Shown piece after piece: positions 208 through 12,971 of a stretch of 12,971 bases of DNA. The number at the start of each line of letters is the position of its first letter. The first letter of the stretch is position 1. The stretch is taken from the IMG/VR virus record IMGVR_UViG_2718218128_000005; one strand, written 5' to 3'. Source of the DNA: a virus (Duplodnaviria > Heunggongvirae > Uroviricota > Caudoviricetes). Made by a program: the position numbers and the translations under genes. The notes beneath the pieces were generated by a model. The model saw only the letters and a program-made list of their open reading frames with translations, searched no databases and was not told the DNA's origin.

Positions 208-792
208 TTACTCCCTGACAGGGTTCGTAGGCCACTCAATATCAGGTGCAGTTGATGTATCAACACGGTTCAGCAACACCCGATACTTTTTCCAGGCTTC
301 CAGCAATGAGGTTTCTTCCTCCGTTGCGATTTCCAGATCTACAGCATCCTGAAGTGGCGCAATATGCTCACTGGCTACCTGCATCAGGCTGTTTTTTATT
401 TCTTCCGCCTCTCGGATCCGGAACAGTTTTTCTGCTTCTGCATCTTTCACCCAGGCTGTGCCGTTCCACTTCTGAAACTCCCCTTCCGGCGATAACCAGG
501 TAACATTTTCCGGTAACGGACCGAGTTCAGAAATAAATAACTCGTCCCCTGACGCTACGTCATAAACCGTTTTACCCCGATGGTCTTCAACGAGATGCCA
601 CGATGCCTCATCACTGTTGAAAACAGCCACAAAGCCAGCAGGAATATCTGGTGGTGCAATATCGGTACTGTTTGCTGGCAGACCTGTATGAGGCGGAATA
701 TATGCATCACCTTCACCAATAAATTCATTAGTTCCGGCCAGCAGATTATAAATTTTTATGGTCCGTGCTTGTTCACTCATTCTGAATGCCAT
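208..792 (-). CDS. tfa: Tail fibre assembly protein (lambda Tfa family), apparently intact, 194 aa
   Basis: The translation looks like lambda/lambdoid Tfa proteins from memory. ATG at 792-790; its start overlaps the stop of the upstream tail-fibre frame (TAATG). Confidence 0.88.
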
Positions 793-1067
793 TATGCAAG
801 CCTCACAATATAGTTAAATGCGATGTTTTTGACGGTGTTTTCCGCGTTACCAGCAGCGTTAACGGTGATGGTGTGTCCATGTGACCCTATCGCAACGGAG
901 TGCGTATGAGCACCAATATCCGAATAGAACGATATTGTAAATTCACCTAAATACGAGGCATTGCTGTAGTTGAATTGCAGTACTGTATTAGCCTGACAGT
1001 GACAGAATACGATATTGACTCTGTCACTTGTGAAATGGTCAGAATGGTTAGCAGTTATGGTGATCAG
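792..1067 (-). pseudogene. Side tail fibre (Stf-like) C-terminal remnant, about 91 codons with no start codon
   Basis: My translation of the minus frame 1067..795 is open and ends ...[30 protein letters not shown], which resembles lambdoid side-tail-fibre C-termini. The frame is closed by a stop at 1068-1070 and contains no Met, so the gene is 5'-truncated next to ybcW. Confidence 0.7.
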
Positions 1068-1270
1068 TCAACCAACAGGGAATAATCCTTCGTATTCTTA
1101 TCGTGCTTTACTAACGCGGCCTCAATTGCCCTGAATGCTTCCAGAGATACTTGATGTTCTATACATGCAATTACAACATCAGGGTAACTCATAGAAATGG
1201 TGCTATTAAGCATATTTTTTACACGAATCAGATCCACGGAGGGATCATCAGCAGATTGTTCTTTATTCAT
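1064..1270 (-). CDS. ybcW: Small prophage protein of unknown function, 68 aa (YbcW-like)
   Basis: 68-aa ORF with ATG at 1270-1268. Size, position and divergent orientation relative to ybcV match DLP12 ybcW as I recall it. Confidence 0.6.
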
Positions 1271-1555
1271 TTTGTCGCTCCATGCGCTTGCTCTTCATCT
1301 AGCGGTTAAAATATTACTTCAAATCTTTCTGTATGAAGATTTGAGCACGTTGGCCTTACATACATCTGTCGGTTGTATTTCCCTCCAGAATGCCAGCAGG
1401 ACCGCACTTTGTTACGCAACCAATACTATTAAGTGAAAACATTCCTAATATTTGACATAAATCATCAACAAAACACAAAGAGGTCAGACCAGATTGAAAC
1501 GATAAAAACGATAATGCAAACTACGCGCCCTCGTATCACATGGAAGGTTTTACCA

Positions 1556-1966
1556 ATGGCTCAGGTTGCCATTTTTAAAGAAATATTCGATCAAGTGCGA
1601 AAAGATTTAAACTGTGAATTGTTTTATTCTGAACTAAAACGTCACAACGTCTCACATTATATTTACTATCTAGCCACAGATAATATTCACATCGTGTTAG
1701 AAAACGATAACACTGTGTTAATAAAAGGACTTAAAAAGGTTGTAAATGTTAAATTCTCAAGAAACACGCATCTTATAGAAACGTCCTATGATAGGTTGAA
1801 ATCAAGAGAAATCACATTTCAGCAATACAGGGAAAATCTTGCTAAAGCAGGAGTTTTCCGATGGGTTACAAATATCCATGAACATAAAAGATATTACTAT
1901 ACCTTTGATAATTCATTACTATTTACTGAGAGCATTCAGAACACTACACAAATCTTTCCACGCTAA
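1556..1966 (+). CDS. ybcV: DUF1398-family prophage protein, 136 aa (YbcV/YdfO-like)
   Basis: The track ORF 1433..1966 contains an internal ATG at 1556 preceded by GGAAGG, which gives 136 aa ([13 protein letters not shown]...). Size and position match YbcV. The upstream ATG at 1526 and the track start at 1433 lack a Shine-Dalgarno sequence. Confidence 0.75.
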
Positions 1967-2256
1967 ATCATAACGTCCGGTTTCTTCCGTGTCAGCACCG
2001 GGGCGTTGGCATAATGCAATACGTGTACGCGCTAAACCCTGTGTGCATCGTTTTTAATTATTCCCGGACACTCCCGCAGAGAAGTTCCCCGTCAGGGCTG
2101 TGGACATAGTTAATCCGGGAATACAATGACGATTCATCGCACCTGACATACATTAATAAATATTAACAATATGAAATTTCAACTCATTGTTTAGGGTTTG
2201 TTTAATTTTCTACACATACGATTCTGCGAACTTCAAAAAGCATCGGGAATAACACC

Positions 2257-2550
2257 ATGAAAAAAATGCTACTCGCTACTGCGCTGGCCCTGCTTATTAC
2301 AGGATGTGCTCAACAGACGTTTACTGTTCAAAACAAACCGGCAGCAGTAGCACCAAAGGAAACCATCACTCATCATTTCTTCGTTTCTGGAATTGGGCAG
2401 AAGAAAACTGTCGATGCAGCCAAAATTTGTGGCGGCGCAGAAAATGTTGTTAAAACAGAAACCCAGCAAACATTCGTAAATGGATTGCTCGGTTTTATTA
2501 CTTTAGGCATTTATACTCCGCTGGAAGCGCGTGTGTATTGCTCACAATAA
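2257..2550 (+). CDS. borD: Bor outer-membrane lipoprotein (serum-resistance moron), 97 aa
   Basis: The translation matches lambda Bor as I remember it, with a lipoprotein signal peptide and lipobox LITGC. It sits opposite and convergent to Rz, as in lambda. Confidence 0.95.
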   Translation: MKKMLLATALALLITGCAQQTFTVQNKPAAVAPKETITHHFFVSGIGQKKTVDAAKICGGAENVVKTETQQTFVNGLLGFITLGIYTPLEARVYCSQ

Positions 2551-2556
2551 TTGCAT

Positions 2557-2582
2557 GAGTTGCCCATCGATATGGGCAACTC
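2557..2582. terminator. Palindromic hairpin between convergent bor and Rz
   Basis: GAGTTGCCCAT-CGAT-ATGGGCAACTC: 11-bp perfect stem with a 4-nt loop, overlapping the Rz stop codon. There is no strong U-tract on either strand, so terminator function is uncertain. Confidence 0.3.
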
Positions 2583-3043
2583 TATCTGCACTGCTCATTA
2601 ATATACTTCTGGGTTCCTTCCAGTTGTTTTTGCATAGTGATCAGCCTCTCTCTGAGGGTGAAATAATCCCGTTCAGCGGTGTCTGCCAGTCGGGGGGAGG
2701 CTGCATTATCCACGCCGGAGGCGGTGGTGGCTTCACGCACTGACTGACAGACTGCTTTGATGTGCAACCGACGACGACCAGCGGCAACATCATCACGCAG
2801 AGCATCATTTTCAGCTTTCGCATCAGCTAACTCCTTCGTGTATTTTGCATCGAGCGCAGCAACATCACGCTGACGCATCTGCATGTCAGTAATTGCCGCG
2901 TTCGCCAGCTTCAGTTCTCTGGCATTTTTGTCGCGCTGGGCTTTGTAGGTAATGGCGTTATCACGGTAATGATTAACAGCCCATGACAGGCCGACGATGA
3001 TGCAGATAACCAGAGCGGAGATAATCGCGGTTACTCTGTTCAT
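2582..3043 (-). CDS. rzpD: Rz i-spanin (inner-membrane spanin subunit), 153 aa
   Basis: The translation matches lambda Rz as I remember it. The true ATG is at 3043-3041, overlapping the R stop (ATGA); the track ORF begins 4 codons earlier at a GTG. Confidence 0.93.
2641..2823 (-). CDS. rzoD: Rz1 o-spanin lipoprotein, 60 aa, embedded in the +1 frame of Rz
   Basis: [24 protein letters not shown]... has lipobox VVGC and a proline-rich segment; it matches lambda Rz1 as I remember it. It lies entirely inside Rz. Confidence 0.9.
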
Positions 3044-3537
3044 TGCTGACCCCACAAACAGATTTCACGCTCAATCTCACGACGAGTCATGAGACCTTTC
3101 CATTGCTTACCGCCAGCATATGTCCAGCGACGTAGCTGATCACATGCGCCTTTGATATCGCCCTGGTTTATTTTGCGAAGAAGCGTCGATGTTCTGAAAT
3201 TGCCAGCACCCACGTTGTAAACGAATGAGTAAAGAGCGCCGCGCGTTGTTTCCGGTATATCGACTTTGATGTACGGGTTAATTTGTCTGGCGACAGTGGC
3301 AAGGTCTTTATTCAAGAGTGCTTTGCATTCTGCTTTGGTATACGTTTTACCGAGCATGATGTCTTTTCCTGTATGCCCGTGACATACAGTCCATACACCA
3401 ACAATATCTTTATATGGTATGTAGCTGACACCTTCCAGACCATCGTCACCACTCGGACCAGTGATGAGCACAGACGCTATGGCAACAGCCCCACCACCAA
3501 TAGCAGCTGCTACAGCCTTGCGTAATGATGGCGACAT
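3040..3537 (-). CDS. rrrD: Phage-21-type endolysin with N-terminal SAR domain (T4-lysozyme-like, GH24), 165 aa
   Basis: Gly/Ala-rich weakly hydrophobic N-terminus ([20 protein letters not shown]) followed by an E...D...T catalytic arrangement ([18 protein letters not shown]). Its ATG overlaps the S stop (TAATG). Confidence 0.93.
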
Positions 3538-3752
3538 TATTCACCTCTCGCAGCCTTACGCTTATCTTCTTTAATCTTGAAATAAAGGTTTGTCAGGTAC
3601 GTCAGCAGGCCAAATACCAGGCTACCCAGCACTCCAATTGCCGCCCACTGTGAGGGCGTGACTTTATCTAGCAGCTGTAAAAACCAGTACCCGGCACTAC
3701 CTGCTGAGGTGCCATAGGCGACACCCGTTGTTAACTTATCCATGGATTTCAT
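3537..3752 (-). CDS. essD: Pinholin S21-type holin with dual-start motif (MKSM), 71 aa
   Basis: 71 aa with two predicted transmembrane segments and Met1-Lys2-Ser3-Met4, the classic antiholin/holin dual start of phage 21 S. GAGGTGG Shine-Dalgarno sequence upstream. Confidence 0.93.
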
Positions 3753-3861
3753 AACCCCACCTCGCAGACAAAGCGGGTGTAAATTGAGGGAATACTACGA
3801 AACGTAACAGACTCGGAGTCAGTGAATAACTCAGGTATTGGGTTATCAGCTAATATCGAGA

Positions 3862-3897
3862 CTCAAAAAATGGAAAAACCCGCTCGACGGCGGGTTT
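3862..3897 (-). terminator. Intrinsic terminator on the minus strand about 110 nt upstream of S; candidate late-operon tR'-like terminator
   Basis: Stem AAACCCGC(3876-3883)/GCGGGTTT(3890-3897) with a 6-nt loop. On the minus strand it is followed directly by TTTTTCCATTTTTTG. Confidence 0.5.
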
Positions 3898-4325
3898 AAG
3901 CTGTGTGACGAAGTAACCACTCTTAACAGCATAACCAATTTTTTACGTACGTAAACCACTAAATGATATTTGCGAGAATGCTACCGAGTATTGAAAACAC
4001 CACTACAAATACATAAGCAAATCTCAACAAATAACCAACAAATAATTTCCAGTGTTATTTTTAGCCGATTTAAATTGAACCTTCAAATTATAGAGCACTT
4101 ATAAATAACAGCCGTTAATATAAATTGGCTAATAGATTTATTTTTATTCAGCCAAGAGCTATAAATAGGATTCGATAGAAAAAAGTTCAGATAAAAATAG
4201 AGATCTACTTCACAAATCAAACGAGAAACCAAAACTTACATCTTGAAATAATCACATTGATTAGATGAATATTTATCGCGCAGTGACATCATTTTTTAAT
4301 AATAGTTCAAAAAAAAGGGCTCACG

Positions 4326-5423
4326 ATGAAAAAATTAACAGTGGCAATTTCTGCTGTAGCTGCATCAGTACTGATGGCGATGTCTGCTCAGGCAGCTGAA
4401 ATTTATAATAAAGACAGTAACAAGCTGGATCTGTACGGGAAAGTTAATGCCAAGCACTACTTCTCCTCTAATGATGCAGATGATGGTGATACTACTTATG
4501 CCCGTCTTGGCTTCAAAGGTGAAACCCAAATCAACGATCAACTGACTGGTTTCGGTCAGTGGGAATATGAATTCAAAGGCAACCGCGCTGAATCTCAAGG
4601 TTCCTCCAAAGACAAAACCCGTCTTGCATTTGCAGGCCTGAAATTCGGTGACTACGGCTCAATCGATTACGGCCGTAACTACGGTGTAGCATACGACATC
4701 GGTGCGTGGACTGACGTTCTGCCAGAATTCGGTGGCGATACCTGGACCCAAACAGATGTGTTCATGACTGGTCGCACCACTGGTGTTGCAACCTATCGTA
4801 ACAACGACTTCTTTGGTCTGGTTGATGGTCTGAACTTTGCTGCTCAGTACCAAGGCAAAAACGATCGTAGCGATTTCGATAACTACACTGAAGGTAACGG
4901 TGATGGCTTCGGTTTCTCTGCTACCTATGAATACGAAGGATTCGGTATCGGTGCAACTTATGCGAAATCTGATCGTACCGACACTCAAGTTAATGCAGGG
5001 AAAGTTCTTCCTGAAGTATTTGCTTCCGGTAAAAATGCAGAAGTTTGGGCCGCAGGTCTGAAATATGACGCTAACAACATTTACCTGGCCACTACCTATT
5101 CTGAAACCCAGAATATGACTGTATTTGCTGATCACTTCGTTGCTAATAAAGCCCAAAACTTCGAAGCTGTTGCACAATATCAGTTCGATTTCGGTCTGCG
5201 TCCGTCCGTTGCTTACCTGCAATCTAAAGGTAAAGATCTTGGAGTATGGGGCGATCAGGACTTAGTCAAATATGTTGATGTAGGTGCAACCTATTACTTC
5301 AACAAAAATATGTCTACTTTCGTTGATTACAAAATCAACCTGCTTGACAAAAATGACTTCACTAAAGCACTCGGTGTAAGCACTGATGACATCGTTGCTG
5401 TAGGTCTGGTTTACCAGTTCTAA
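4326..5423 (+). CDS. nmpC: Outer-membrane general porin, NmpC/Lc (OmpC/OmpF family), apparently intact, 365 aa
   Basis: Signal peptide ending [10 protein letters not shown], general-porin-like sequence and the terminal ...VGLVYQF. It lies between Q and the lysis genes on the opposite strand, as nmpC does in DLP12. Confidence 0.93.
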
Positions 5424-5596
5424 TCTGATTACGAAAAAGATATGTTGCGGGAGGCGTTGCCTCCCCAACATATAAGTGGCTCCCTCAAGCCACTTCCTTT
5501 AGAAGCACAACCTTGCTTCTAACTATATAAACCTTCTGTTATATATTACCCTTTATTTTTGGGGGCGTCTCAACGCCCCATTTTTAATAATTTTTA
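5424..5596 (+). ncRNA. ipeX: Candidate IpeX-like small RNA / structured 3' region downstream of the porin gene
   Basis: Three successive hairpins (5449-5465 GGGAGGC/GCCTCCC; about 5471-5492 AAGTGGCT/AGCCACTT; about 5500-5517 GAAGCA/TGCTTC) plus the terminator at 5562-5596. I recall a porin-inhibitory sRNA (IpeX) mapped just 3' of nmpC in DLP12; the boundaries here are guesses. Confidence 0.25.
5562..5596 (+). terminator. Intrinsic terminator on the plus strand (porin / 3' RNA terminator)
   Basis: Stem GGGGCGT(5562-5568)/ACGCCCC(5573-5579) with a 4-nt loop, followed by ATTTTTAATAATTTTT. It would also shield Q from antisense read-through. Confidence 0.5.
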
Positions 5597-5612
5597 GTAA
5601 ACAATTGGCATA

Positions 5613-5996
5613 TTAATTAGAGTTATTAACAACGATATCCATCTCTAACCGGATATCTAATGCCATTAACATCCCTTCAATTATGCCCTCAGCCTTCTGT
5701 AACCTTTTCCCGATATAACCATCAGAGCAGCAATGCTTACCTGCCAGTGACATGAATGTCATACCGACTACATAATAATCTACTAATAAATCGTGCAAAT
5801 CGCTGTTGTTCTTTTTCAGACGGGCCATGCACCCGCAAATAATCATCGCGTCATCGTCACAACATTGCGGGCGAGATTTTACTTTTGAAGTAATTAATCC
5901 CTTAAAACCGGCGGCAATGGACGACCAGGTCACATCTTCATGATTATTAGCCGCCCACGCTCCCCAACGCTCAAGAACCATCTGAATATCACGCAT
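5613..5996 (-). CDS. quuD: Late-gene antiterminator Q, 127 aa
   Basis: ATG at 5996-5994 with GGAG upstream gives 127 aa ([18 protein letters not shown]...), the size of DLP12 QuuD. The track ORF starts 5 codons earlier at TTG. Confidence 0.9.
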
Positions 5997-6081
5997 CAAC
6001 TTACTCCACAAAAATCAGACCAGAACGCCAATTACAAGCAAAAATCAACAAAACAGTATTAGTTGATTGTTATCTCTGACT

Positions 6082-6219
6082 TCATACTCCTGCTCCTGTC
6101 AGGGTTTTGGCGTAATTCTTCAGTATTCGGTAATCGGTCAAAACAGAACCGGGGAAACGATATAAGCGCAGATGCCCCCAGCGGTGGCGAAGAAGTTCTG
6201 CCATATAAAACTCAAACAT
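6082..6219 (-). CDS. ylcG: Small nin-region ORF, 45 aa (YlcG-like)
   Basis: My translation from ATG 6219-6217 to stop 6084-6082 is [45 protein letters not shown]. Its start overlaps the rusA stop (TGATG), and its position between rusA and Q matches ylcG. Confidence 0.45.
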   Translation of the reverse strand: MFEFYMAELLRHRWGHLRLYRFPGSVLTDYRILKNYAKTLTGAGV

Positions 6220-6581
6220 CATTCATTCCCCATTTCGGTGATGGTCAGTTCCAGCCTCCCACCTTTGGTAACAGGCATCTTCACAACGCGGTAATCAACG
6301 ACCTGAGCATCATCCAGCCAGAAACCTGCTTTGGTGAGTGCGTCAAAAGCGGCTTTTTGCAGATTATCCAGGTCACGGCGACGGCGATCCGGCATGTGGC
6401 ACTCAATACGGATTTTCACTGGCATAGCCAGGCCGATATCCAGCATTGCGTTTTTAATGATTCGGGTGACGTTATCGCGGTATGCCTGCCCTTCTGCGCT
6501 GATGTGCGTGCGCCCGCGATTATGGCGGTAATAGCGATTATTGCTCGGAGGCCAGGGTAATGTGATGCTGTAGGTATTCAC
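6219..6581 (-). CDS. rusA: RusA Holliday-junction resolvase, 120 aa
   Basis: [18 protein letters not shown]... matches RusA as I remember it. GTG start at 6581-6579 overlaps the ybcO stop. Confidence 0.93.
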
Positions 6582-6868
6582 GCCTTAATAACCCCCTCTT
6601 TCAGCCAGATAACCTGTGTTCTCGCCATACCTTCCAGCGCGCATTCTTTTGCATATGCAGCATCGACAAAATGTGTGCGGCGGTCGATTTCGTCGTGGCA
6701 GGCAGAACATGCAATGGTGGCAATCAGGTCTGGCGGTTTGATACCGGTACCGCACAATCCAGCCAGCCGGATATGTGCCAGTACAGACGTTTCAGAATTG
6801 CCATTACATACGCCAGGGATTCTTACCTGGCATTCCCGACCACGCGCTGCTTTTCTCAAATCAGCCAT
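6578..6868 (-). CDS. ybcO: YbcO-like nin-region protein (DUF1364, putative nuclease), 96 aa
   Basis: ATG at 6868-6866 preceded by AGGAGG gives 96 aa ([23 protein letters not shown]...). The track ORF starts 13 codons upstream. Confidence 0.85.
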
Positions 6869-7031
6869 GATTCCTCCTTGCTGCCAGTCGCAACCATTTT
6901 TTATCAACCAGGCTAGCGGTATATCCGAGCAGTGTTGGTATTTCGGATGGCTTCGGCTCAGGCTTACGCTTACGACGATTTGATACTCTGTAGATGTGTC
7001 CGTTCATGACACGAATAAGCGGTGTAGCCAT
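6861..7031 (-). CDS. ninE: NinE, 56 aa
   Basis: My translation (ATG 7031-7029 to stop 6863-6861) is [56 protein letters not shown]. It is below the track's size cut-off; its start overlaps the ybcN stop (TAATG) and its end overlaps the ybcO start. Confidence 0.8.
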   Translation of the reverse strand: MATPLIRVMNGHIYRVSNRRKRKPEPKPSEIPTLLGYTASLVDKKWLRLAARRNHG

Positions 7032-7486
7032 TACGCCTCCTGCTTGTCACGGAGCAGCTGGAACTCGCAGCTCTGCGGAATAGTCAGGTGGCAGCCAATA
7101 TTCACCGCCCAGGCTTCAACCTTACACAGGAAGACATACATCTCTCCGGTATCAAGATCGGAGGTATGGCGTAACGACTGGATAGTGGTGATATCACCGG
7201 TTACGACATCAACCAGGTCTTTGGTTTCATAACCGAGATATGTGTGTTTGAGAGCATCTTTTACCCAAGCTGGAGTGGCGAACGTTTTACCCCTGTTGAT
7301 GAGGTATTCACTGATTTCGCTGTACCACATGTGGCTGAGTGCATTCTGGGAAAGACTGCGTTTCTCACGCCACGGTTTAAGCACCATGCGAAAGCATTTG
7401 CCCTCCTCCAGATAAGGCTGGATCTGCCGACCGATAGCGGTGAAGTTACCGCGATGTAATTTGATGCCATCTTGTGGGAGATTCAC
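7031..7486 (-). CDS. ybcN: YbcN-like nin-region protein, 151 aa
   Basis: 151 aa with a GTG start at 7486-7484 preceded by GGAGGTG. Size and position match DLP12 ybcN. Confidence 0.85.
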
Positions 7487-7682
7487 GCTTCACCTCCGCA
7501 GAGGTCAAACGCTGGATGCAAAAAATCGCAGGTGCATCTCTGCATCTGTGAAGGGAGAAGAGAGTTTGGATTGTATGTGCGCATAAACGTCCCCGTTTAG
7601 CGCAGAAGTCACCGGAGTTGTTCAGGCTCCGATGACATGATTATGGCAAAATGATTATGTAAAATCAAAAGCCAAAAAACAA

Positions 7683-8612
7683 TTATGGTTTATTTTCTAG
7701 CTCTGATTTTTTGAAAGCTTCTATCAGACGATTAGCATCTTCTGTACCACCAGGAAGCACGTTTGATTTTTTAAGAATATACGGTGGGAACTTTGTGGTT
7801 AAATATTCATGCTTAAACCATCTACGAAACTCTGACAATGCAGAATCAGGATAGGCATTAATGATCTGAGGATTGGAACTTGCCTGAAGAAAATCTTCAG
7901 GGTAATAATGCTCACAGTCTACTCTTTCTCCAAATTCTGTTGCTAACCCCTTTGCTTTCCAGTGACGCGCCCAGCAAGAACCAACACTGCCATCAGGTAC
8001 GGTATGCTGATTAATCGCTAATCCAGCATTGATGAGATCTACCATCATACCTGCAATTTCATTAAATATAATGAAATACCCATCAGGTATGGTTCCCTTA
8101 TCTTTTAATAAAGATACTCTGTCATGGTAATGCCTCCACGGGTCCTCCGGTTGATATTTTAGCGCCTCGTATATAAATGTCTTGAGGCCTTTTTTAGCAA
8201 GCTCTCTGTAAGATCTAATTGCAGTCTCACTTTCTGCTTGTTTTGCTTCAAAGGCATAGTATTCAAGTATAGCCATGCATACAACATCTGGATAAGCATG
8301 GTACTCAACACCATTTCGAATTATTGGTATATAAAGTTTTTCATCTGTAAAACCTTCATTAAGAAGATATGTACCAATAAAAGTCATTCTTCCTTTTTTG
8401 AAAATACCGTTCTCAACGGATTGAGCCCACTCATCGGTAATTTCCTTGATTCGCAAACGCTGAACACCACAAACATTTGCCAACCCATTCTGAGTAAGGT
8501 ACGGAATTCCGTTATCGAGTACCCCCATTTCTATACCGTTAATGACAGCCTCTTGCTTAACATCTAAGTCTAAAGGTATGGATCTGAGGGAGGTAGTTCT
8601 CTGTTGTGCCAT
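7683..8612 (-). CDS. AT-rich cargo gene of unknown function, 309 aa; candidate anti-phage/abortive-infection protein with a possible KilA-N/APSES-like N-terminal domain (BstA-like architecture is a hypothesis)
   Basis: Long ORF with ATG at 8612-8610 preceded by AGGA at 6-nt spacing (the track ORF starts 5 codons earlier at TTG). The N-terminal stretch VINGIEMGVLDNGIPYLTQNGLANVCGV resembles the DG-x-x-W-V-N-A-T-x-I-L-K-A-A-G core of KilA-N/APSES domains. The gene looks markedly more AT-rich than the flanking phage genes. The confidence given is for a real CDS, not for the functional call. Confidence 0.7.
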   Translation of the reverse strand: MAQQRTTSLRSIPLDLDVKQEAVINGIEMGVLDNGIPYLTQNGLANVCGVQRLRIKEITDEWAQSVENGIFKKGRMTFIGTYLLNEGFTDEKLYIPIIRNGVEYHAYPDVVCMAILEYYAFEAKQAESETAIRSYRELAKKGLKTFIYEALKYQPEDPWRHYHDRVSLLKDKGTIPDGYFIIFNEIAGMMVDLINAGLAINQHTVPDGSVGSCWARHWKAKGLATEFGERVDCEHYYPEDFLQASSNPQIINAYPDSALSEFRRWFKHEYLTTKFPPYILKKSNVLPGGTEDANRLIEAFKKSELENKP

Positions 8613-8718
8613 TTTTGATCCTATCAATTTGAATTCATTGAAAAAATTAGGTGTTCCCTATGCATTAGAACACTCATCATAGTAACCCCACTCGTTTGTG
8701 AAAAAAACTAATTTCACA

Positions 8719-8744
8719 ATCAGTTAACTCTCAAAATAACTGAT
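8719..8744. promoter_or_regulatory. Perfect 8-bp inverted repeat with a 10-bp spacer in the AT-rich leader of the 309-aa gene; candidate operator
   Basis: ATCAGTTA(8719-8726)-N10-TAACTGAT(8737-8744), about 110 bp upstream of the start codon. Confidence 0.3.
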
Positions 8745-8816
8745 ATTCATACTCTCGCTATCCCATATATAGACATCCTTGTTTTAATACAACACTCATG
8801 GCTGGCGGCTATACTC

Positions 8817-9134
8817 CTAACAGATTTGACGCAAATACGGCAATACTCGACTCCACTTATCATCCTGCCACGGCTGAAGTTTTACATGTGCCGTTTCTCG
8901 GACGAGGATTGCTCGCGCTCTGTTGAGTATCTGGGGATATTCTTGCTCGATGGAAGTGAAGTGACCAGCTTCACCATGCTCCGCATCCTGAAGAAGATGA
9001 GTAACGTTCTGGTAGGCAATTAACATCACATTCCCTGCTCGCCATAACCAGGCGAGTGTGCAAAGTTCGTTATCAGTGAATTGTTTTGTGATTGGGGATT
9101 GTTGAACTGCTAGAACGAGAACGCCAGCATCCAT
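8817..9134 (-). CDS. Hypothetical protein, 105 aa, upstream of the 309-aa cargo gene
   Basis: ORF bounded by a stop 3 codons upstream of its ATG, with a weak AGGGA Shine-Dalgarno sequence. No family recognised. It looks more GC-rich than its AT-rich flanks, so it could be a remnant or a real small gene. Confidence 0.4.
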   Translation of the reverse strand: MDAGVLVLAVQQSPITKQFTDNELCTLAWLWRAGNVMLIAYQNVTHLLQDAEHGEAGHFTSIEQEYPQILNRARAILVRETAHVKLQPWQDDKWSRVLPYLRQIC

Positions 9135-9245
9135 TGGCAGTCCCTATAGTAAAACCATAGCTCAGGACGCTTCGTTCAGGATAGATAATTTTATTGTACT
9201 TACCTAACTTTCTTACTATAGCACGGTTGAAAAAGTGATTATTAC

Positions 9246-10772
9246 TCAAAAATAAACCTCACCATCAACCATATATTTGAGAGTACTTATCGCCTGCTGG
9301 GCGGATATTGTTTTCATTAAAGGATAGTGTTTAAAAACAATGCCATTCATAAAATAGATATCACAGGTTTTATTATCTGTATTGATTATGATTTTTTCGA
9401 ATGTTTTATAGGCAAGTGTACGACATAGCTCTCGCCCATTTTTACTGGTTAAGTCAATAGCATGAAAATCACCAAGTGAGCTCACCGCTTTACTCTTCAA
9501 AGTTTTTAATGATACAGAAGCCCTTCGTAATTCCTTATCTAATACTCTGATTTTTTCTGCTATAGCGGTAACTTCAGGCGCAACAGATAATGCAGCAATT
9601 AAATTATTAATTTTCATCTGGAGCTCAATAATTTTCAACTCTAAAGTTTCATTAGCATCTTTCTTGTTTTCAACTGGTTGGATTTTACTACAATTAAAAA
9701 GCAACTCATTAATGATATTATAATCAACCAAATCTCTCTTTATTGATGGCCTGTCACATCGATGCAGTCTTCTCATCGGACAAACATAATAGCCATGCAA
9801 ACTTCCAGATACCGCATGAACAATCATGGTATTACCACAAGCCTCGCACTTCATAACTGTTCGAAGTAGATTTATCAACATAGGGTTTTTGCTACTATTG
9901 CTAATACCAAAAGGTGCCAACCGAATTTCCTGCACAGCGTAAAACAAATCATCTGATATGACTCTGGGATAATAGCCAGCGATTTCACTTATTCCTTTAC
10001 CTCTTGCACGATATGAAGGTACGCATATACCTATCAGAGCTTTATTCGCTAATAATTTTTCAATTACAGAAGGTCCCCATGCACTTTCTTTTCCTGAGAA
10101 ATTCTTTACAGCATGATCATTTAAATACTTGGCTATTGCATTCAATGAGCGCCTTTCCATCCTGAGTTTAAAAATTAGCTCAATAGTTTTCACCCTGTCG
10201 GGGTCTGGAACAAAAGCCGTTCTTTTGTCATCTAAGGAGAGCCATCTCGGACAAGACGCCGTCATAATCGTGCCTGACTCCAGTGCATCCTGCCGTTTTT
10301 TCTTCCATGATAATTTAACCCGACTTGACTTTATCTCGCTTTCTTCATTTGCCCTTTGTGCTATAAGTATGGCTTTTATTAATGAATATGGATCATTCAA
10401 AGAGTCAATATTATAGACTGTATTATCGCAAAGAGTTATAACATCAATACCGTGATTCAAAATCAATTTCAGACGCTCAATCGCTTCACCGACTTTTTCT
10501 CTTGAAAGTCTGTCCAGACTTTCAACTAACAATGTAGTTCCTGGCAATATATAACCATGCTCTATAGCATCTAAAAATTCCGAAAAAGCTCCTGATTGTG
10601 CATGCTTTCCTTTGAATGCACTTAATCCTAAATCTTCATATGTTATGGTATCAAGATAATAATCACTATTTACCTTTAACCATTCAGCAATAAGTCTTCT
10701 CTGTCGGTTTAATGAGTCGCCAGACATCTGACCTGGTGATGAAAATCGCATATATGCTATGGCTTTTTTCAT
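9246..10772 (-). CDS. ybcK: Large serine recombinase (resolvase/invertase N-terminal catalytic domain plus recombinase and zinc-ribbon regions), 508 aa (YbcK-like)
   Basis: N-terminus AIAYMRFSSPGQ... carries the serine-recombinase catalytic Ser motif, and there is a Cys cluster (CEACGN...YYVCP...HRC). AGGTG Shine-Dalgarno sequence; 508 aa equals the DLP12 YbcK length. Confidence 0.9.
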   Translation of the reverse strand: MKKAIAYMRFSSPGQMSGDSLNRQRRLIAEWLKVNSDYYLDTITYEDLGLSAFKGKHAQSGAFSEFLDAIEHGYILPGTTLLVESLDRLSREKVGEAIERLKLILNHGIDVITLCDNTVYNIDSLNDPYSLIKAILIAQRANEESEIKSSRVKLSWKKKRQDALESGTIMTASCPRWLSLDDKRTAFVPDPDRVKTIELIFKLRMERRSLNAIAKYLNDHAVKNFSGKESAWGPSVIEKLLANKALIGICVPSYRARGKGISEIAGYYPRVISDDLFYAVQEIRLAPFGISNSSKNPMLINLLRTVMKCEACGNTMIVHAVSGSLHGYYVCPMRRLHRCDRPSIKRDLVDYNIINELLFNCSKIQPVENKKDANETLELKIIELQMKINNLIAALSVAPEVTAIAEKIRVLDKELRRASVSLKTLKSKAVSSLGDFHAIDLTSKNGRELCRTLAYKTFEKIIINTDNKTCDIYFMNGIVFKHYPLMKTISAQQAISTLKYMVDGEVYF

Positions 10773-10954
10773 GGTGACACCTGCTAACGTATGCTTCTAT
10801 AAACCTTAGTGGTGAGATATAATTTTTGTTTAATTTTTATTTAAAAAGACAATTAAGGTCACATTATCTTGAATATACAACAATAATCGTATTGCAATTT
10901 TCTTACGCCATAATCTTGAAAGCACAAAAGAATACATAAAAAAATAAAGACATT

Positions 10955-10997
10955 AACAAAAAGCATAAAACGAGGCTCATATAAATATAAGAGCCTC
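10955..10997 (-). terminator. Intrinsic terminator downstream of emrE (minus strand)
   Basis: Stem GAGGCTC(10972-10978)/GAGCCTC(10991-10997) with a 12-nt AT loop. On the minus strand it is followed by GTTTTATGCTTTTTG. Confidence 0.4.
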
Positions 10998-11028
10998 CAT
11001 ATTTTAGTCGTTTAGAAACAAATTATTT

Positions 11029-11361
11029 TTAATGTGGTGTGCTTCGTGACAATAAATTAATAACCAACACACCGGCACAAATCAACATCATGCCTATAAT
11101 GGCTGGCAGGTCCAGCCGTTGGCCGAAAAATCCCCATGACAGTAAGCTAATCAGGACAATACCGACTCCTGACCAGATAGCATAAGCAATCCCTGTAGGA
11201 ATATAAGCCAGCGTCTGAGCTAATAACCAGAATGATGCACAATAACAAATAATTGTACCAACAGATGGCCATAACCGTGTAAAACCTTCTGAAAACTTCA
11301 TTAAGGTTGTACCAATGACCTCTGCAAGTATTGCACCACCAAGATAAATATAAGGGTTCAT
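11029..11361 (-). CDS. emrE: EmrE small multidrug resistance (SMR) efflux transporter, 110 aa
   Basis: From ATG 11361-11359 the translation MNPYIYLGGAILAEVIGTTLMKFSEGF...LLSRSTPH matches EmrE as I remember it, with four transmembrane segments. The track ORF starts 18 codons upstream. Confidence 0.95.
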   Translation of the reverse strand: MNPYIYLGGAILAEVIGTTLMKFSEGFTRLWPSVGTIICYCASFWLLAQTLAYIPTGIAYAIWSGVGIVLISLLSWGFFGQRLDLPAIIGMMLICAGVLVINLLSRSTPH

Positions 11362-11428
11362 AGCATATTCTTTCCTGTTCAAACTGGAGAGAATTGTACT
11401 ACAGTTTGAAATCAACTCACCTGTTTCA

Positions 11429-11731
11429 TCATTGTGTACCCATTGATGTTCTTTTATATACCCTCAATACGCGTTTCATCGCGGCACTCTGGCGACACTC
11501 CTTAAAAATCAGATTCGTGCTCACCTTTCCTTCCCGTTCTTCTCTGGTAGCGAACCGGTAATACACCGTTCGCCAGACCTTACCATCAACGACCAGGATT
11601 CCTGCCCGCGCCATTTTAGCCGCAGCCTGATTTATGCTGGTTACGGTTGCGCCTGTTACCGCGGCAACGTCCTGTGCACAGAAGCTCTTATGCGTCCCCA
11701 GGTAATGAATAATTGCCTCTTTGCCCGTCAT
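11429..11731 (-). CDS. ren: Ren (lambda Ren-like), 100 aa
   Basis: MTGKEAIIHYLGTH...KVWRTVYYRFATREEREGK... is near-identical to lambda Ren as I remember it. Its ATG overlaps the P stop (ATGA). Confidence 0.9.
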   Translation of the reverse strand: MTGKEAIIHYLGTHKSFCAQDVAAVTGATVTSINQAAAKMARAGILVVDGKVWRTVYYRFATREEREGKVSTNLIFKECRQSAAMKRVLRVYKRTSMGTQ

Positions 11732-12339
11732 ACACTTGCTCCTTTCAGTCCGAACTTAGCTTTAATTTCTGCGATCTTCGCCAGAGCCTGTGCACGATTT
11801 AGAGGTCTACCGCCCATAACAGGAAGTTGTTTTACTGGTTCAGGGATCGCCTCACCACGGTTAATTCTCGCAGTCATATGGACAAGCTCATCTGCGGCCT
11901 TACGGCGTAATTCCGCATCAGTAAGCGCATTGGCCCGCATGTTCTGATACAGGTTGGTAACCAGCCAGTAGTGCGCGTTTGATTTCCACGGATAAGACTC
12001 CGCATCCGGATACAGGCCTCGCTTCCGGCAATACTCGTAAACCATATCAACCAGCTCGCTGACGTTTGGCAGTCCGGCGATAACGGATGCTTCTTCCCGG
12101 CACCATGCAACAAACTGCCCGGGTGATGGCAGAAATGGTCGATTCTGCCGACGGGCTACGCGCATTCCAGCGTTAACCTGTTCCATTGTGGTGATCCCGT
12201 TTTCCCGGAAAGCCAGAACCCACTGGCGGCGGATTTCGTTCAGTTCATTCTGGTCACGGTTAGCCAGGCTCGCCGGGAAAGTTGCCAGTAACTGGCTGAA
12301 CACACCATTGATGATCTGCGCTACCTGCTGTACCAGCGG
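11728..12339 (-). pseudogene. P: Replication protein P (lambda P, DnaB helicase loader), N-terminally truncated
   Basis: The track protein ...FSQLLATFPASLANRDQNE...KAKFGLKGASV matches the C-terminal roughly 190 aa of lambda P as I remember it. The frame stays open upstream only to a stop at 12340-12342 and has no in-frame ATG; the track start at 12303 is a GTG encoding an internal Val. The first ~45 residues of P, and the gene O upstream, are absent. Confidence 0.85.
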
Positions 12340-12971
12340 TCAGAAACAAGCGAGTCAGATGGCTGGAAAAGGAGGAAGCAAAACGCCTTATTGATGAGTG
12401 CCCCGAACCACTGAAATCTGTCGTCAAGTTTGCGCTGGCAACTGGTCTGAGAAAGTCGAACATCATAAATCTGGAATGGCAACAAATCGACATGCAGCGA
12501 CGAGTTGCCTGGGTGAATCCAGAAGAGAGCAAATCAAACCGCGCCATTGGTGTGGCGCTAAACGATACCGCCTGTAAAGTGTTGCGTGATCAAATAGGCA
12601 AGCATCACAAATGGGTGTTTGTACATACCAAGGCGGCTAAGCGAGCAGATGGAACATCAACGCCTGCGGTCAGGAAGATGCGCATCGACAGCAAGACATC
12701 ATGGCTATCAGCTTGTCGTCGTGCAGGAATTGAAGATTTCCGTTTCCATGACCTCAGACACACCTGGGCAAGCTGGCTGATTCAGTCAGGCGTCCCATTA
12801 TCAGTGCTTCAGGAAATGGGCGGATGGGAGTCCATAGAAATGGTTCGTAGGTATGCTCACCTTGCGCCTAATCATTTGACAGAGCATGCGAGGAAAATAG
12901 ACGACATTTTTGGTGATAATGTCCCAAATATGTCCCACTCTGGAATTATGGAGGATATAAAGAAGGCGTAA
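12340..12971 (+). pseudogene. int: Tyrosine recombinase (phage integrase) C-terminal catalytic domain, truncated N-terminally at the junction with P'
   Basis: The frame is open from 12315. It carries ATGLR (catalytic Arg), HDLRHTWAS (H-x-x-R) and MVRRYAHL (catalytic Tyr). Only about 210 codons are present, so the arm-binding and core-binding N-terminal domains are missing. The stop falls at 12969-12971, the window edge. Confidence 0.8.

Follow-up and report, generated by a model that had tools for sequence, protein, structure and literature searches.

The gene at positions 7683-8612 of the window, as we call the whole 12,971-nucleotide stretch of DNA analysed here, very probably encodes a single-protein abortive-infection defence of the BstA family; it forms a self-contained insert within the nin region of a cryptic lambdoid prophage of E. 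coli that resembles DLP12. As judged by comparison with its relatives, the product is a full-length, two-domain BstA. This identification is already known, the same protein being listed in the founding paper of the family, in which Table S1 gives 72 BstA homologs including one in E. coli NCTC8623 (LR134234, 4557005-4557922; Owen et al. 2021, PMC8585504). What we add is modest, namely the relocation of the clade to the nin region and a family-wide pattern of direct repeats across the start codon, which may be new.

The bstA coding sequence lies on the minus strand and runs intact from an ATG at 8612 down to 7683 (309 aa, stop codon included in the coordinates; WP_000068668.1). The open reading frame list and the RefSeq CDS give the same coordinates. 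An alternative TTG at 8627 would give a product of 314 aa, but the RefSeq annotation and the homolog alignments favour the ATG.

The PADLOC BstA model matched residues 10-304 of the protein over profile positions 5-291 of 292 (E=3.6e-121), and PHROG 6287, named 'BstA abortive infection system, replication inhibitor', matched residues 5-308 (E=1.8e-136). BLASTP against the BstA of Salmonella phage BTP1 (STMMW_03531; PMC8585504) gave 40% identity over 306 residues (residues 3-308, E=5e-77); both are prophage-borne two-domain proteins of about 307-309 aa, similar from end to end. These matches bear out the sequence-only reading, which had put forward BstA as its candidate and had named DefenseFinder or PADLOC models as a check. 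A search of 5.8 billion proteins yielded 1,250 relatives. The Pfam domain PF26567 (BstA_C) is among the precomputed annotations of the 100%-identical cluster representative (P0001) and of almost all the listed homologs, so that the earlier statement that the C-terminus matches nothing recognisable is outdated. Our own Pfam search of the window protein, with a set of models that lacks PF26567, returned only crAss_CARG1 at E=0.16, well below cut-off, and the NCBIfam search gave no match. In RefSeq, WP_000068668.1 is called hypothetical in older records and 'BstA C-terminal domain-containing protein' in the newest.

In order to place the gene in its prophage, the window was compared by BLASTN with positions 563000-582000 of E. 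coli K-12. Five main blocks aligned at 94-99.7% identity, namely 919-5365 (ylcI through the lysis genes into nmpC), 5357-7670 (the end of nmpC through ylcH), 9207-11642 (ybcK, emrE and ren), 11641-12039 (the P remnant) and 12331-12971 (intD), and a short sixth match (305-646) fell in K-12 tfaD. The window is hence a DLP12-like cryptic lambdoid prophage in the orientation opposite to that of K-12; its integrase end is 99.7% identical to K-12 intD, and DLP12 is located at argU. The genes around bstA (ybcK, ybcN, ninE, rusA, quuD, the lysis genes and the integrase) show that it is prophage-borne.

Similarity to K-12 stops at 7670 and restarts at 9207. The 1,536-bp cassette between these breakpoints (7671-9206) takes the place of a 1,812-bp stretch of K-12 (570470-572281) in which ybcL and ybcM lie, which confirms the statement of the sequence-only reading that the slot of these K-12 genes has a different occupant in the window. 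The cassette was also described as single-gene cargo, and this was incorrect. It holds in addition a 105-aa open reading frame on the minus strand at 8817-9134 (WP_001567061.1) with the C-terminal domain of the P22 antirepressor (Pfam P22_AR_C, E=7.7e-14; PHROG 7640, full length, E=1.7e-69). We considered this frame as a functional partner of bstA and rejected it, since it is absent beside bstA in two relatives of the window locus (L021 and L027) and is a pseudogene, with an internal stop, in NCTC8623. The GC content of the bstA coding sequence is 0.39 and that of the leader (8613-8816) 0.34, compared with 0.51 for the ybcN-rusA backbone, in agreement with the first description of an AT-rich gene with an AT-rich leader. 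The low GC content extends beyond bstA, into ybcK (0.36) and emrE (0.41).

According to Owen et al. 2021 (PMC8585504), bstA usually lies directly downstream of the prophage repressor, with which it presumably shares a promoter. In the window bstA is a nin-region gene, flanked by ybcK and ylcH/ybcN and not beside cI. The idea of a variable moron slot holds. No prophage repressor was found within the window, and bstA is thus not directly downstream of one; cI, cro and O are missing and P is present as a remnant, like in K-12. The same allele is also found in prophages that retain cI, cro, O and P. One of these is the prophage of NCTC8623, which carries the same WP_000068668.1 between the same flanks (ybcK and ylcH-ybcN), whereas the window prophage has lost the immunity and replication-origin region. 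Relatives with 89-92% identity, on viral contigs of 22-57 kb, are likewise not in the repressor-downstream slot. In the two such loci that we checked (L021 and L027, at 90-91% in the locus table), bstA is flanked by DUF551 or Ead/Ea22-type genes on one side and by DUF1367 and RusA on the other, which places it in a nin region. More distant relatives in Lonsdalea (74% identity) and Morganella (69%) directly follow an HTH_3 and Peptidase_S24 repressor. The window clade has therefore left the slot downstream of cI for one in the nin region.

The start codon of bstA is straddled by a direct repeat. The upstream copy, AGGGAACACCT, is at 8649-8659 (minus strand; -47 to -37 relative to the ATG) and the downstream copy, AGAGAACTACCT, at 8591-8602 (minus strand; +11 to +22, within codons 4-8), and the starts of the two copies are 57 bp apart. 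In BTP1 a direct repeat also straddles the start codon, with its CCCGCC copies starting 56 bp apart, and there it marks the ends of the mapped aba element, a 63-bp stretch from -29 to +34 in which a single-base change in either repeat abolishes function (PMC8585504). The repeat itself differs, being CCCGCC in BTP1 and GRGAAC.ACCT in the window, but the position of the downstream copy fits that of the second CCCGCC repeat of the BTP1 aba. We propose that the 69-bp stretch 8659-8591, straddling the start codon, is the cognate aba of the window allele, with the upstream copy as its left end, placed by the clade leader alignment and the family repeat, and the downstream copy as its right end. The two copies in the window differ by one mismatch and one 1-nt indel, which leaves 7 of 10 matches at offset 57. 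The indel is also seen in two further loci (L016 and L028). The imperfect repeat could reflect decay of the aba in a prophage that has ceased to replicate.

We then looked at the same region across the family. Eighty loci were fetched from viral contigs and combined with the window and the reference loci, giving 81 usable loci with 66 unique leaders. Each locus was anchored at the codon that aligns with residue D15 in the window protein, and the 135 bases ending there were scanned for ungapped self-matches at offsets of 20-100. Offset 57 was the best in 30.3 of the 66 unique leaders and in 26.1 of the 49 leaders whose pairwise identity is below 80%, compared with at most 4.4 on any one offset for shuffled sequences and at most 3.4 for a stretch inside the gene. 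Of these 49 leaders, 33 have 8 or more of 10 positions matching in the homologous place at offsets 56-58. The two copies within a locus agree at 8.08 of 12 positions compared with 4.73 between loci (permutation p<=1e-4), although the loci are related and their shared ancestry inflates all of these statistics and overstates their independence.

The sequence of the repeat is specific to the lineage. It reads GRGAWC.ACCY in the clade of the window and GGCCACC or GGCCGCC, CCCGCACCC, AGCCC, CCTAC or GAGATCACCCT in others; in Klebsiella phage RCIP0114, the copies at offset 57 are GTGGTCATCA and CTGGTCACCA. The downstream copy always falls within the codons for the disordered N-terminal tail of the protein. 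Whether this 57-bp-spaced, lineage-specific repeat is the determinant of aba specificity throughout the BstA family is, in our estimate, evenly poised. The nin-region clade kept the repeat after its move, and this suggests that what the gene cannot do without is the repeat and not the cI context.

The repeats could also be the operator of BstA itself, rather than the aba determinant or in addition to it. We consider it possible, though somewhat unlikely, that they are not a self-immunity element at all and serve as an autoregulatory operator, or are a by-product of a conserved leader and a conserved N-terminal peptide. The upstream copy lies just 3' of a candidate -10 element, which is a typical place for a repressor site, and the constant spacing may simply have been inherited among related loci. 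Against these readings, the repeat changes from lineage to lineage while both copies in a locus change together. The downstream copy is located in a tail predicted with low confidence (residues 1-11, pLDDT below 50), in which protein constraint is weak. A mapped aba is available from BTP1 only, and we found no mapping outside BTP1 and no later mechanistic work on BstA in the literature searched; in BTP1, however, both repeats are needed for aba function at the level of single bases. The operator and aba roles are moreover compatible, given that an amplified operator would titrate BstA.

Since bstA is not downstream of cI in the window, it would need a promoter of its own. A candidate sigma-70 promoter lies at 8676-8704 on the minus strand (TTTTCA, 17-nt spacer, TATGAT; 9 of 12 positions in a consensus scan). 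Taken alone, this consensus match is no better than chance, with scan counts equal to the shuffled expectation. In the clade alignment the -10 block is kept, and the candidate -10 TATGAT aligns with TATCAT or TATTAT in the relatives. The order of elements is kept as well, with the -10-like sequence followed by the repeat block and then by the ribosome-binding site, which in the window is a Shine-Dalgarno AGGA at 8619-8622 (minus strand), six bases 5' of the ATG, in line with the good RBS noted in the sequence-only reading.

The leader also holds two adjacent perfect 8-bp inverted repeats, found by a repeat search, which span 8696-8744. The first, TTGTGAAA-N8-TTTCACAA at 8696-8719, overlaps the candidate -35, and the second, ATCAGTTA-N10-TAACTGAT, is at 8719-8744; in the clade alignment they are not kept in the relatives with 89-92% identity. 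A TGTGA...TCACA palindrome in the leader was considered as a CRP site and rejected, its half-sites being 12 bp apart and not 6. The terminator scan found no terminator-like hairpin after the bstA stop codon.

The distribution of the gene was studied by blastn with the gene and its leader against 5,426 complete E. coli genomes. A match was found in 139 genomes, in 110 of them at 99% identity or more, and all of these matches are chromosomal. At least 80% of the query is held in one piece in 104 genomes, and the ORF is intact in about 104 of the 110 carriers. The whole 1,759 bp including the flanks are present in 109 genomes, so that essentially every carrier shares one context, and about 2% of complete E. 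coli genomes have the allele in this slot. IS elements lie within or next to bstA in a few carriers and a truncated form of 187 aa exists, hence the gene is dispensable. In comparison with the relatives of 89-92% identity, pN is about 0.06 and pS about 0.8; as synonymous sites are saturated, dN/dS is not computable and we give pN and pS instead. These values indicate, at the level of sequence, long-term strong purifying selection on the lineage.

An unlikely explanation of these observations is that the gene is a silent or decaying passenger, a true BstA by descent that is inactive or not expressed and gives no defence. It has been separated from the cI promoter, to which the expression of most bstA genes is attributed, the prediction of its own promoter is at chance level, and the signs of loss are of several kinds, including the IS insertions and truncated copies, the imperfect copies of the repeat and the pseudogene state of the adjoining P22AR_C frame in NCTC8623. 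Decay of this sort is countered by the intact reading frame in nearly all carriers and by the presence in the window protein of every residue that is invariant across a 55-sequence homolog alignment (A1). Furthermore, the upstream repeat block, together with the -10 and ribosome-binding blocks, is conserved in the leaders of the nin-region relatives despite saturated synonymous sites in the gene, which speaks for regarding the nin-region arrangement as a functional unit of expression.

We built an AlphaFold2 model on alignment A1, of which the window protein is the first row. The model (mean pLDDT 85) shows two confident domains, preceded by the disordered residues 1-11. The N-terminal domain spans residues ~15-125 (8238-8570, minus strand), and is thus larger than the ~60 aa first assigned to it. 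It comprises three strands followed by two or three helices, a hairpin of two strands and a final helix. The C-terminal BstA_C domain, delimited by the precomputed PF26567 and alignment A1, spans residues ~150-305 (7698-8165, minus strand) and holds most of the invariant residues (T204, P206, D207, S209, V210, G211, W214, H235 and S246-N247-P248-Q249). No analogue of the C-terminal domain among solved structures was found by a profile search of PDB sequences, which gave only 4ham, a GntR-type HTH protein (E=1.1), or by Foldseek against the PDB, where nothing was better than E=0.29.

For the N-terminal domain, Foldseek against viral models gave weak matches to antirepressors, Bro and KilA-N proteins, and fold comparison showed a resemblance to DNA-binding folds including the APSES domain of Mbp1, with modest support. 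Weak HTH matches were also obtained (PADLOC 'HTH', E=2e-8; HTH_Crp_2 in 12 of the 55 homologs; Phage_CII). The Pfam KilA-N model (PF04383) gave no match by hmmscan with the window protein (E<=1) or with the 55 homologs (E<=10). In BstA-BTP1 a KilA-N(-like) domain had been found by HHpred at residues 32-147 (Owen et al. 2021, PMC8585504). The KilA-N-like N-terminus of the sequence-only reading has weak to modest backing from fold comparison and none from the Pfam model. As predicted by the model, the domain appears to be of a helix-turn-helix-containing DNA-binding type, putatively KilA-N/APSES-like, and in our reading it would belong to the broad KilA-N/APSES/antirepressor class. That the protein is mainly a DNA-binding regulator of prophage or host genes, of the antirepressor, Bro or KilA-N kind, is highly improbable: the weak fold and HTH matches and the antirepressor-domain frame next door point in that direction, but the full-length homology takes in BstA_C, which antirepressors lack, the neighbouring frame is unlinked to bstA in other loci, and the three homologs tested by Owen et al. 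(those of BTP1, Klebsiella Kp52.145 and E. coli NCTC10963), at about 40% identity, all gave abortive infection (PMC8585504).

As an abortive-infection defence, the window gene would be expected to act in the way of the BTP1, Klebsiella and NCTC10963 proteins. By this analogy, BstA would be made constitutively in the lysogen and in uninfected cells. When a sensitive phage infects, it would gather at the replicating phage DNA and block replication, and the infected cell would die without release of progeny, so protecting the population. In an inducible prophage, the amplified aba would silence the cognate BstA and the prophage itself would escape. As the window prophage has lost its immunity region and the gene of its replication origin, self-immunity has no obvious use and is probably irrelevant there, and the gene may act as a domesticated host defence.

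Several known systems can be set beside this one. BTP1 is inducible and its defence has been shown experimentally, whereas the window prophage is cryptic and its allele is known here from sequence; bstA directly follows cI in BTP1, whereas the window has it in the nin region, with ybcK and ybcN on either side. For the BstA-Ec of E. coli NCTC10963 (E4V89_RS07420), defence and a cognate aba within the locus have been shown experimentally (PMC8585504). We considered whether the window gene is identical with it and rejected this, as BstA-Ec is a different allele, of 897 bp and beside cI. Its listed match of 897 bp corresponds to 298 aa. We read this type in strain 2012C-4431, where the CDS is 906 bp and lies between cI (LexA family) and N; it was taken as the same type from the identical 897-bp match length in Table S1 and the cI-downstream setting. 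The 2012C-4431 locus resembles the window in having the repeat at offset 57 (AGCAGATCCCTACA / AGCGAATCCCTGCA). No locus of the BstA-Ec type was among the blastn matches to the window gene in the 5,426 complete E. coli genomes.

In a pan-genome study of E. coli, bstA was confined to lambda-like prophages at the tRNA-Arg hotspot #32 (Hochhauser et al. 2023, PMC10121019). Those prophages are like that of the window in being lambdoid, in lying at a tRNA-Arg gene and in carrying bstA, which fits DLP12 at argU; the paper gives counts only, and its ten bstA instances are not assignable to the window allele. Lambda RexAB is the positional analogue of bstA beside cI (Owen et al. 2021, PMC8585504). Like BstA it is a prophage-encoded abortive-infection system expressed in the lysogen; unlike BstA it consists of unrelated proteins that act by membrane depolarisation, and the window gene is not in the RexAB position.

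In terms of annotation, the 'hypothetical protein' of the older RefSeq records for WP_000068668.1 can be replaced by a BstA-family abortive-infection protein. In about 2% of complete E. coli genomes, the allele is found in a DLP12-like prophage instead of ybcL-ybcM. Phages blocked by other BstA proteins include lambda, phi80, P1, T7 and P22, and carriage may alter the host range of phages of the lambdoid, P1-like and T7-like kinds, and with it phage therapy and the typing of such strains. By itself the gene adds little to the work of Owen et al. 2021, and the useful extra is the comparative repeat pattern. If the repeat does determine aba specificity across the family, the cognate aba of any BstA could be read from sequence, including that of the window allele at 8659-8591. 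The mechanism by which a short DNA element silences specifically the cognate BstA is a question left open by Owen et al. 2021 (PMC8585504). Should the repeats be the aba determinants, this silencing would become testable with a few dozen natural protein-repeat pairs, and the pairing of repeats with N-domain sequences would give a recognition code for the switching-off of BstA by its own prophage DNA.

The start codon of bstA, the 309-aa BstA-family gene of the window (7683-8612, minus strand), is straddled by a direct repeat that recurs with a constant 57-bp spacing in the BstA loci of many bacteria (compared loci L005-L092; window 8591-8659). The sequence of the repeat changes from lineage to lineage, yet the two copies within a locus match. 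The layout is the same as that of aba, the self-immunity DNA element mapped at the bstA 5' end in the Salmonella prophage BTP1, and in the literature searched we found no family-wide account of this 57-bp-spaced repeat.

The leader upstream of the bstA ATG also contains two adjoining perfect 8-bp inverted repeats (window 8696-8744), the first being TTGTGAAA-N8-TTTCACAA, which overlaps the candidate -35, and the second ATCAGTTA-N10-TAACTGAT. Neither showed conservation in the related loci.

The cassette that carries bstA brought in with it a stand-alone 105-aa ORF (8817-9134, minus strand) corresponding to the P22 antirepressor C-terminal domain, with a full-length match to PHROG 7640. The copy in E. 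coli NCTC8623, which has an identical BstA, contains an internal stop, and in other loci the ORF does not adjoin bstA.

The window was compared with the K-12 prophage region by BLASTN. The porin gene nmpC, broken by IS5 in K-12, is whole in the window (4326-5423, plus strand; 365 aa), and the IS5 insertion site is the exact meeting point of two K-12 alignment blocks (window junction near 5357-5365). The IS3 insertion by which K-12 renD is split is absent from the window ren, the alignment blocks joining at 11641-11642, at the K-12 IS3C position. The P-like ORF (11728-12303, minus strand) encodes 191 aa and is longer than the K-12 peaD pseudogene. The segment of about 290 bp that separates the P remnant from the integrase (12040-12330) has no equivalent in the K-12 region used for comparison, and at the left end positions 1-304 and 647-918 gave no alignment to that region; an ORF located here (208-792, minus strand) has a product that looks like a tail-fibre assembly protein.

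The E. coli GE3 locus (L001) is a fuller version of the window's prophage. Just past its XRE-type repressor gene, on the opposite side from cro, lies a SIR2-family gene (L001 15670-17271), possibly a further defence gene alongside bstA in this prophage.
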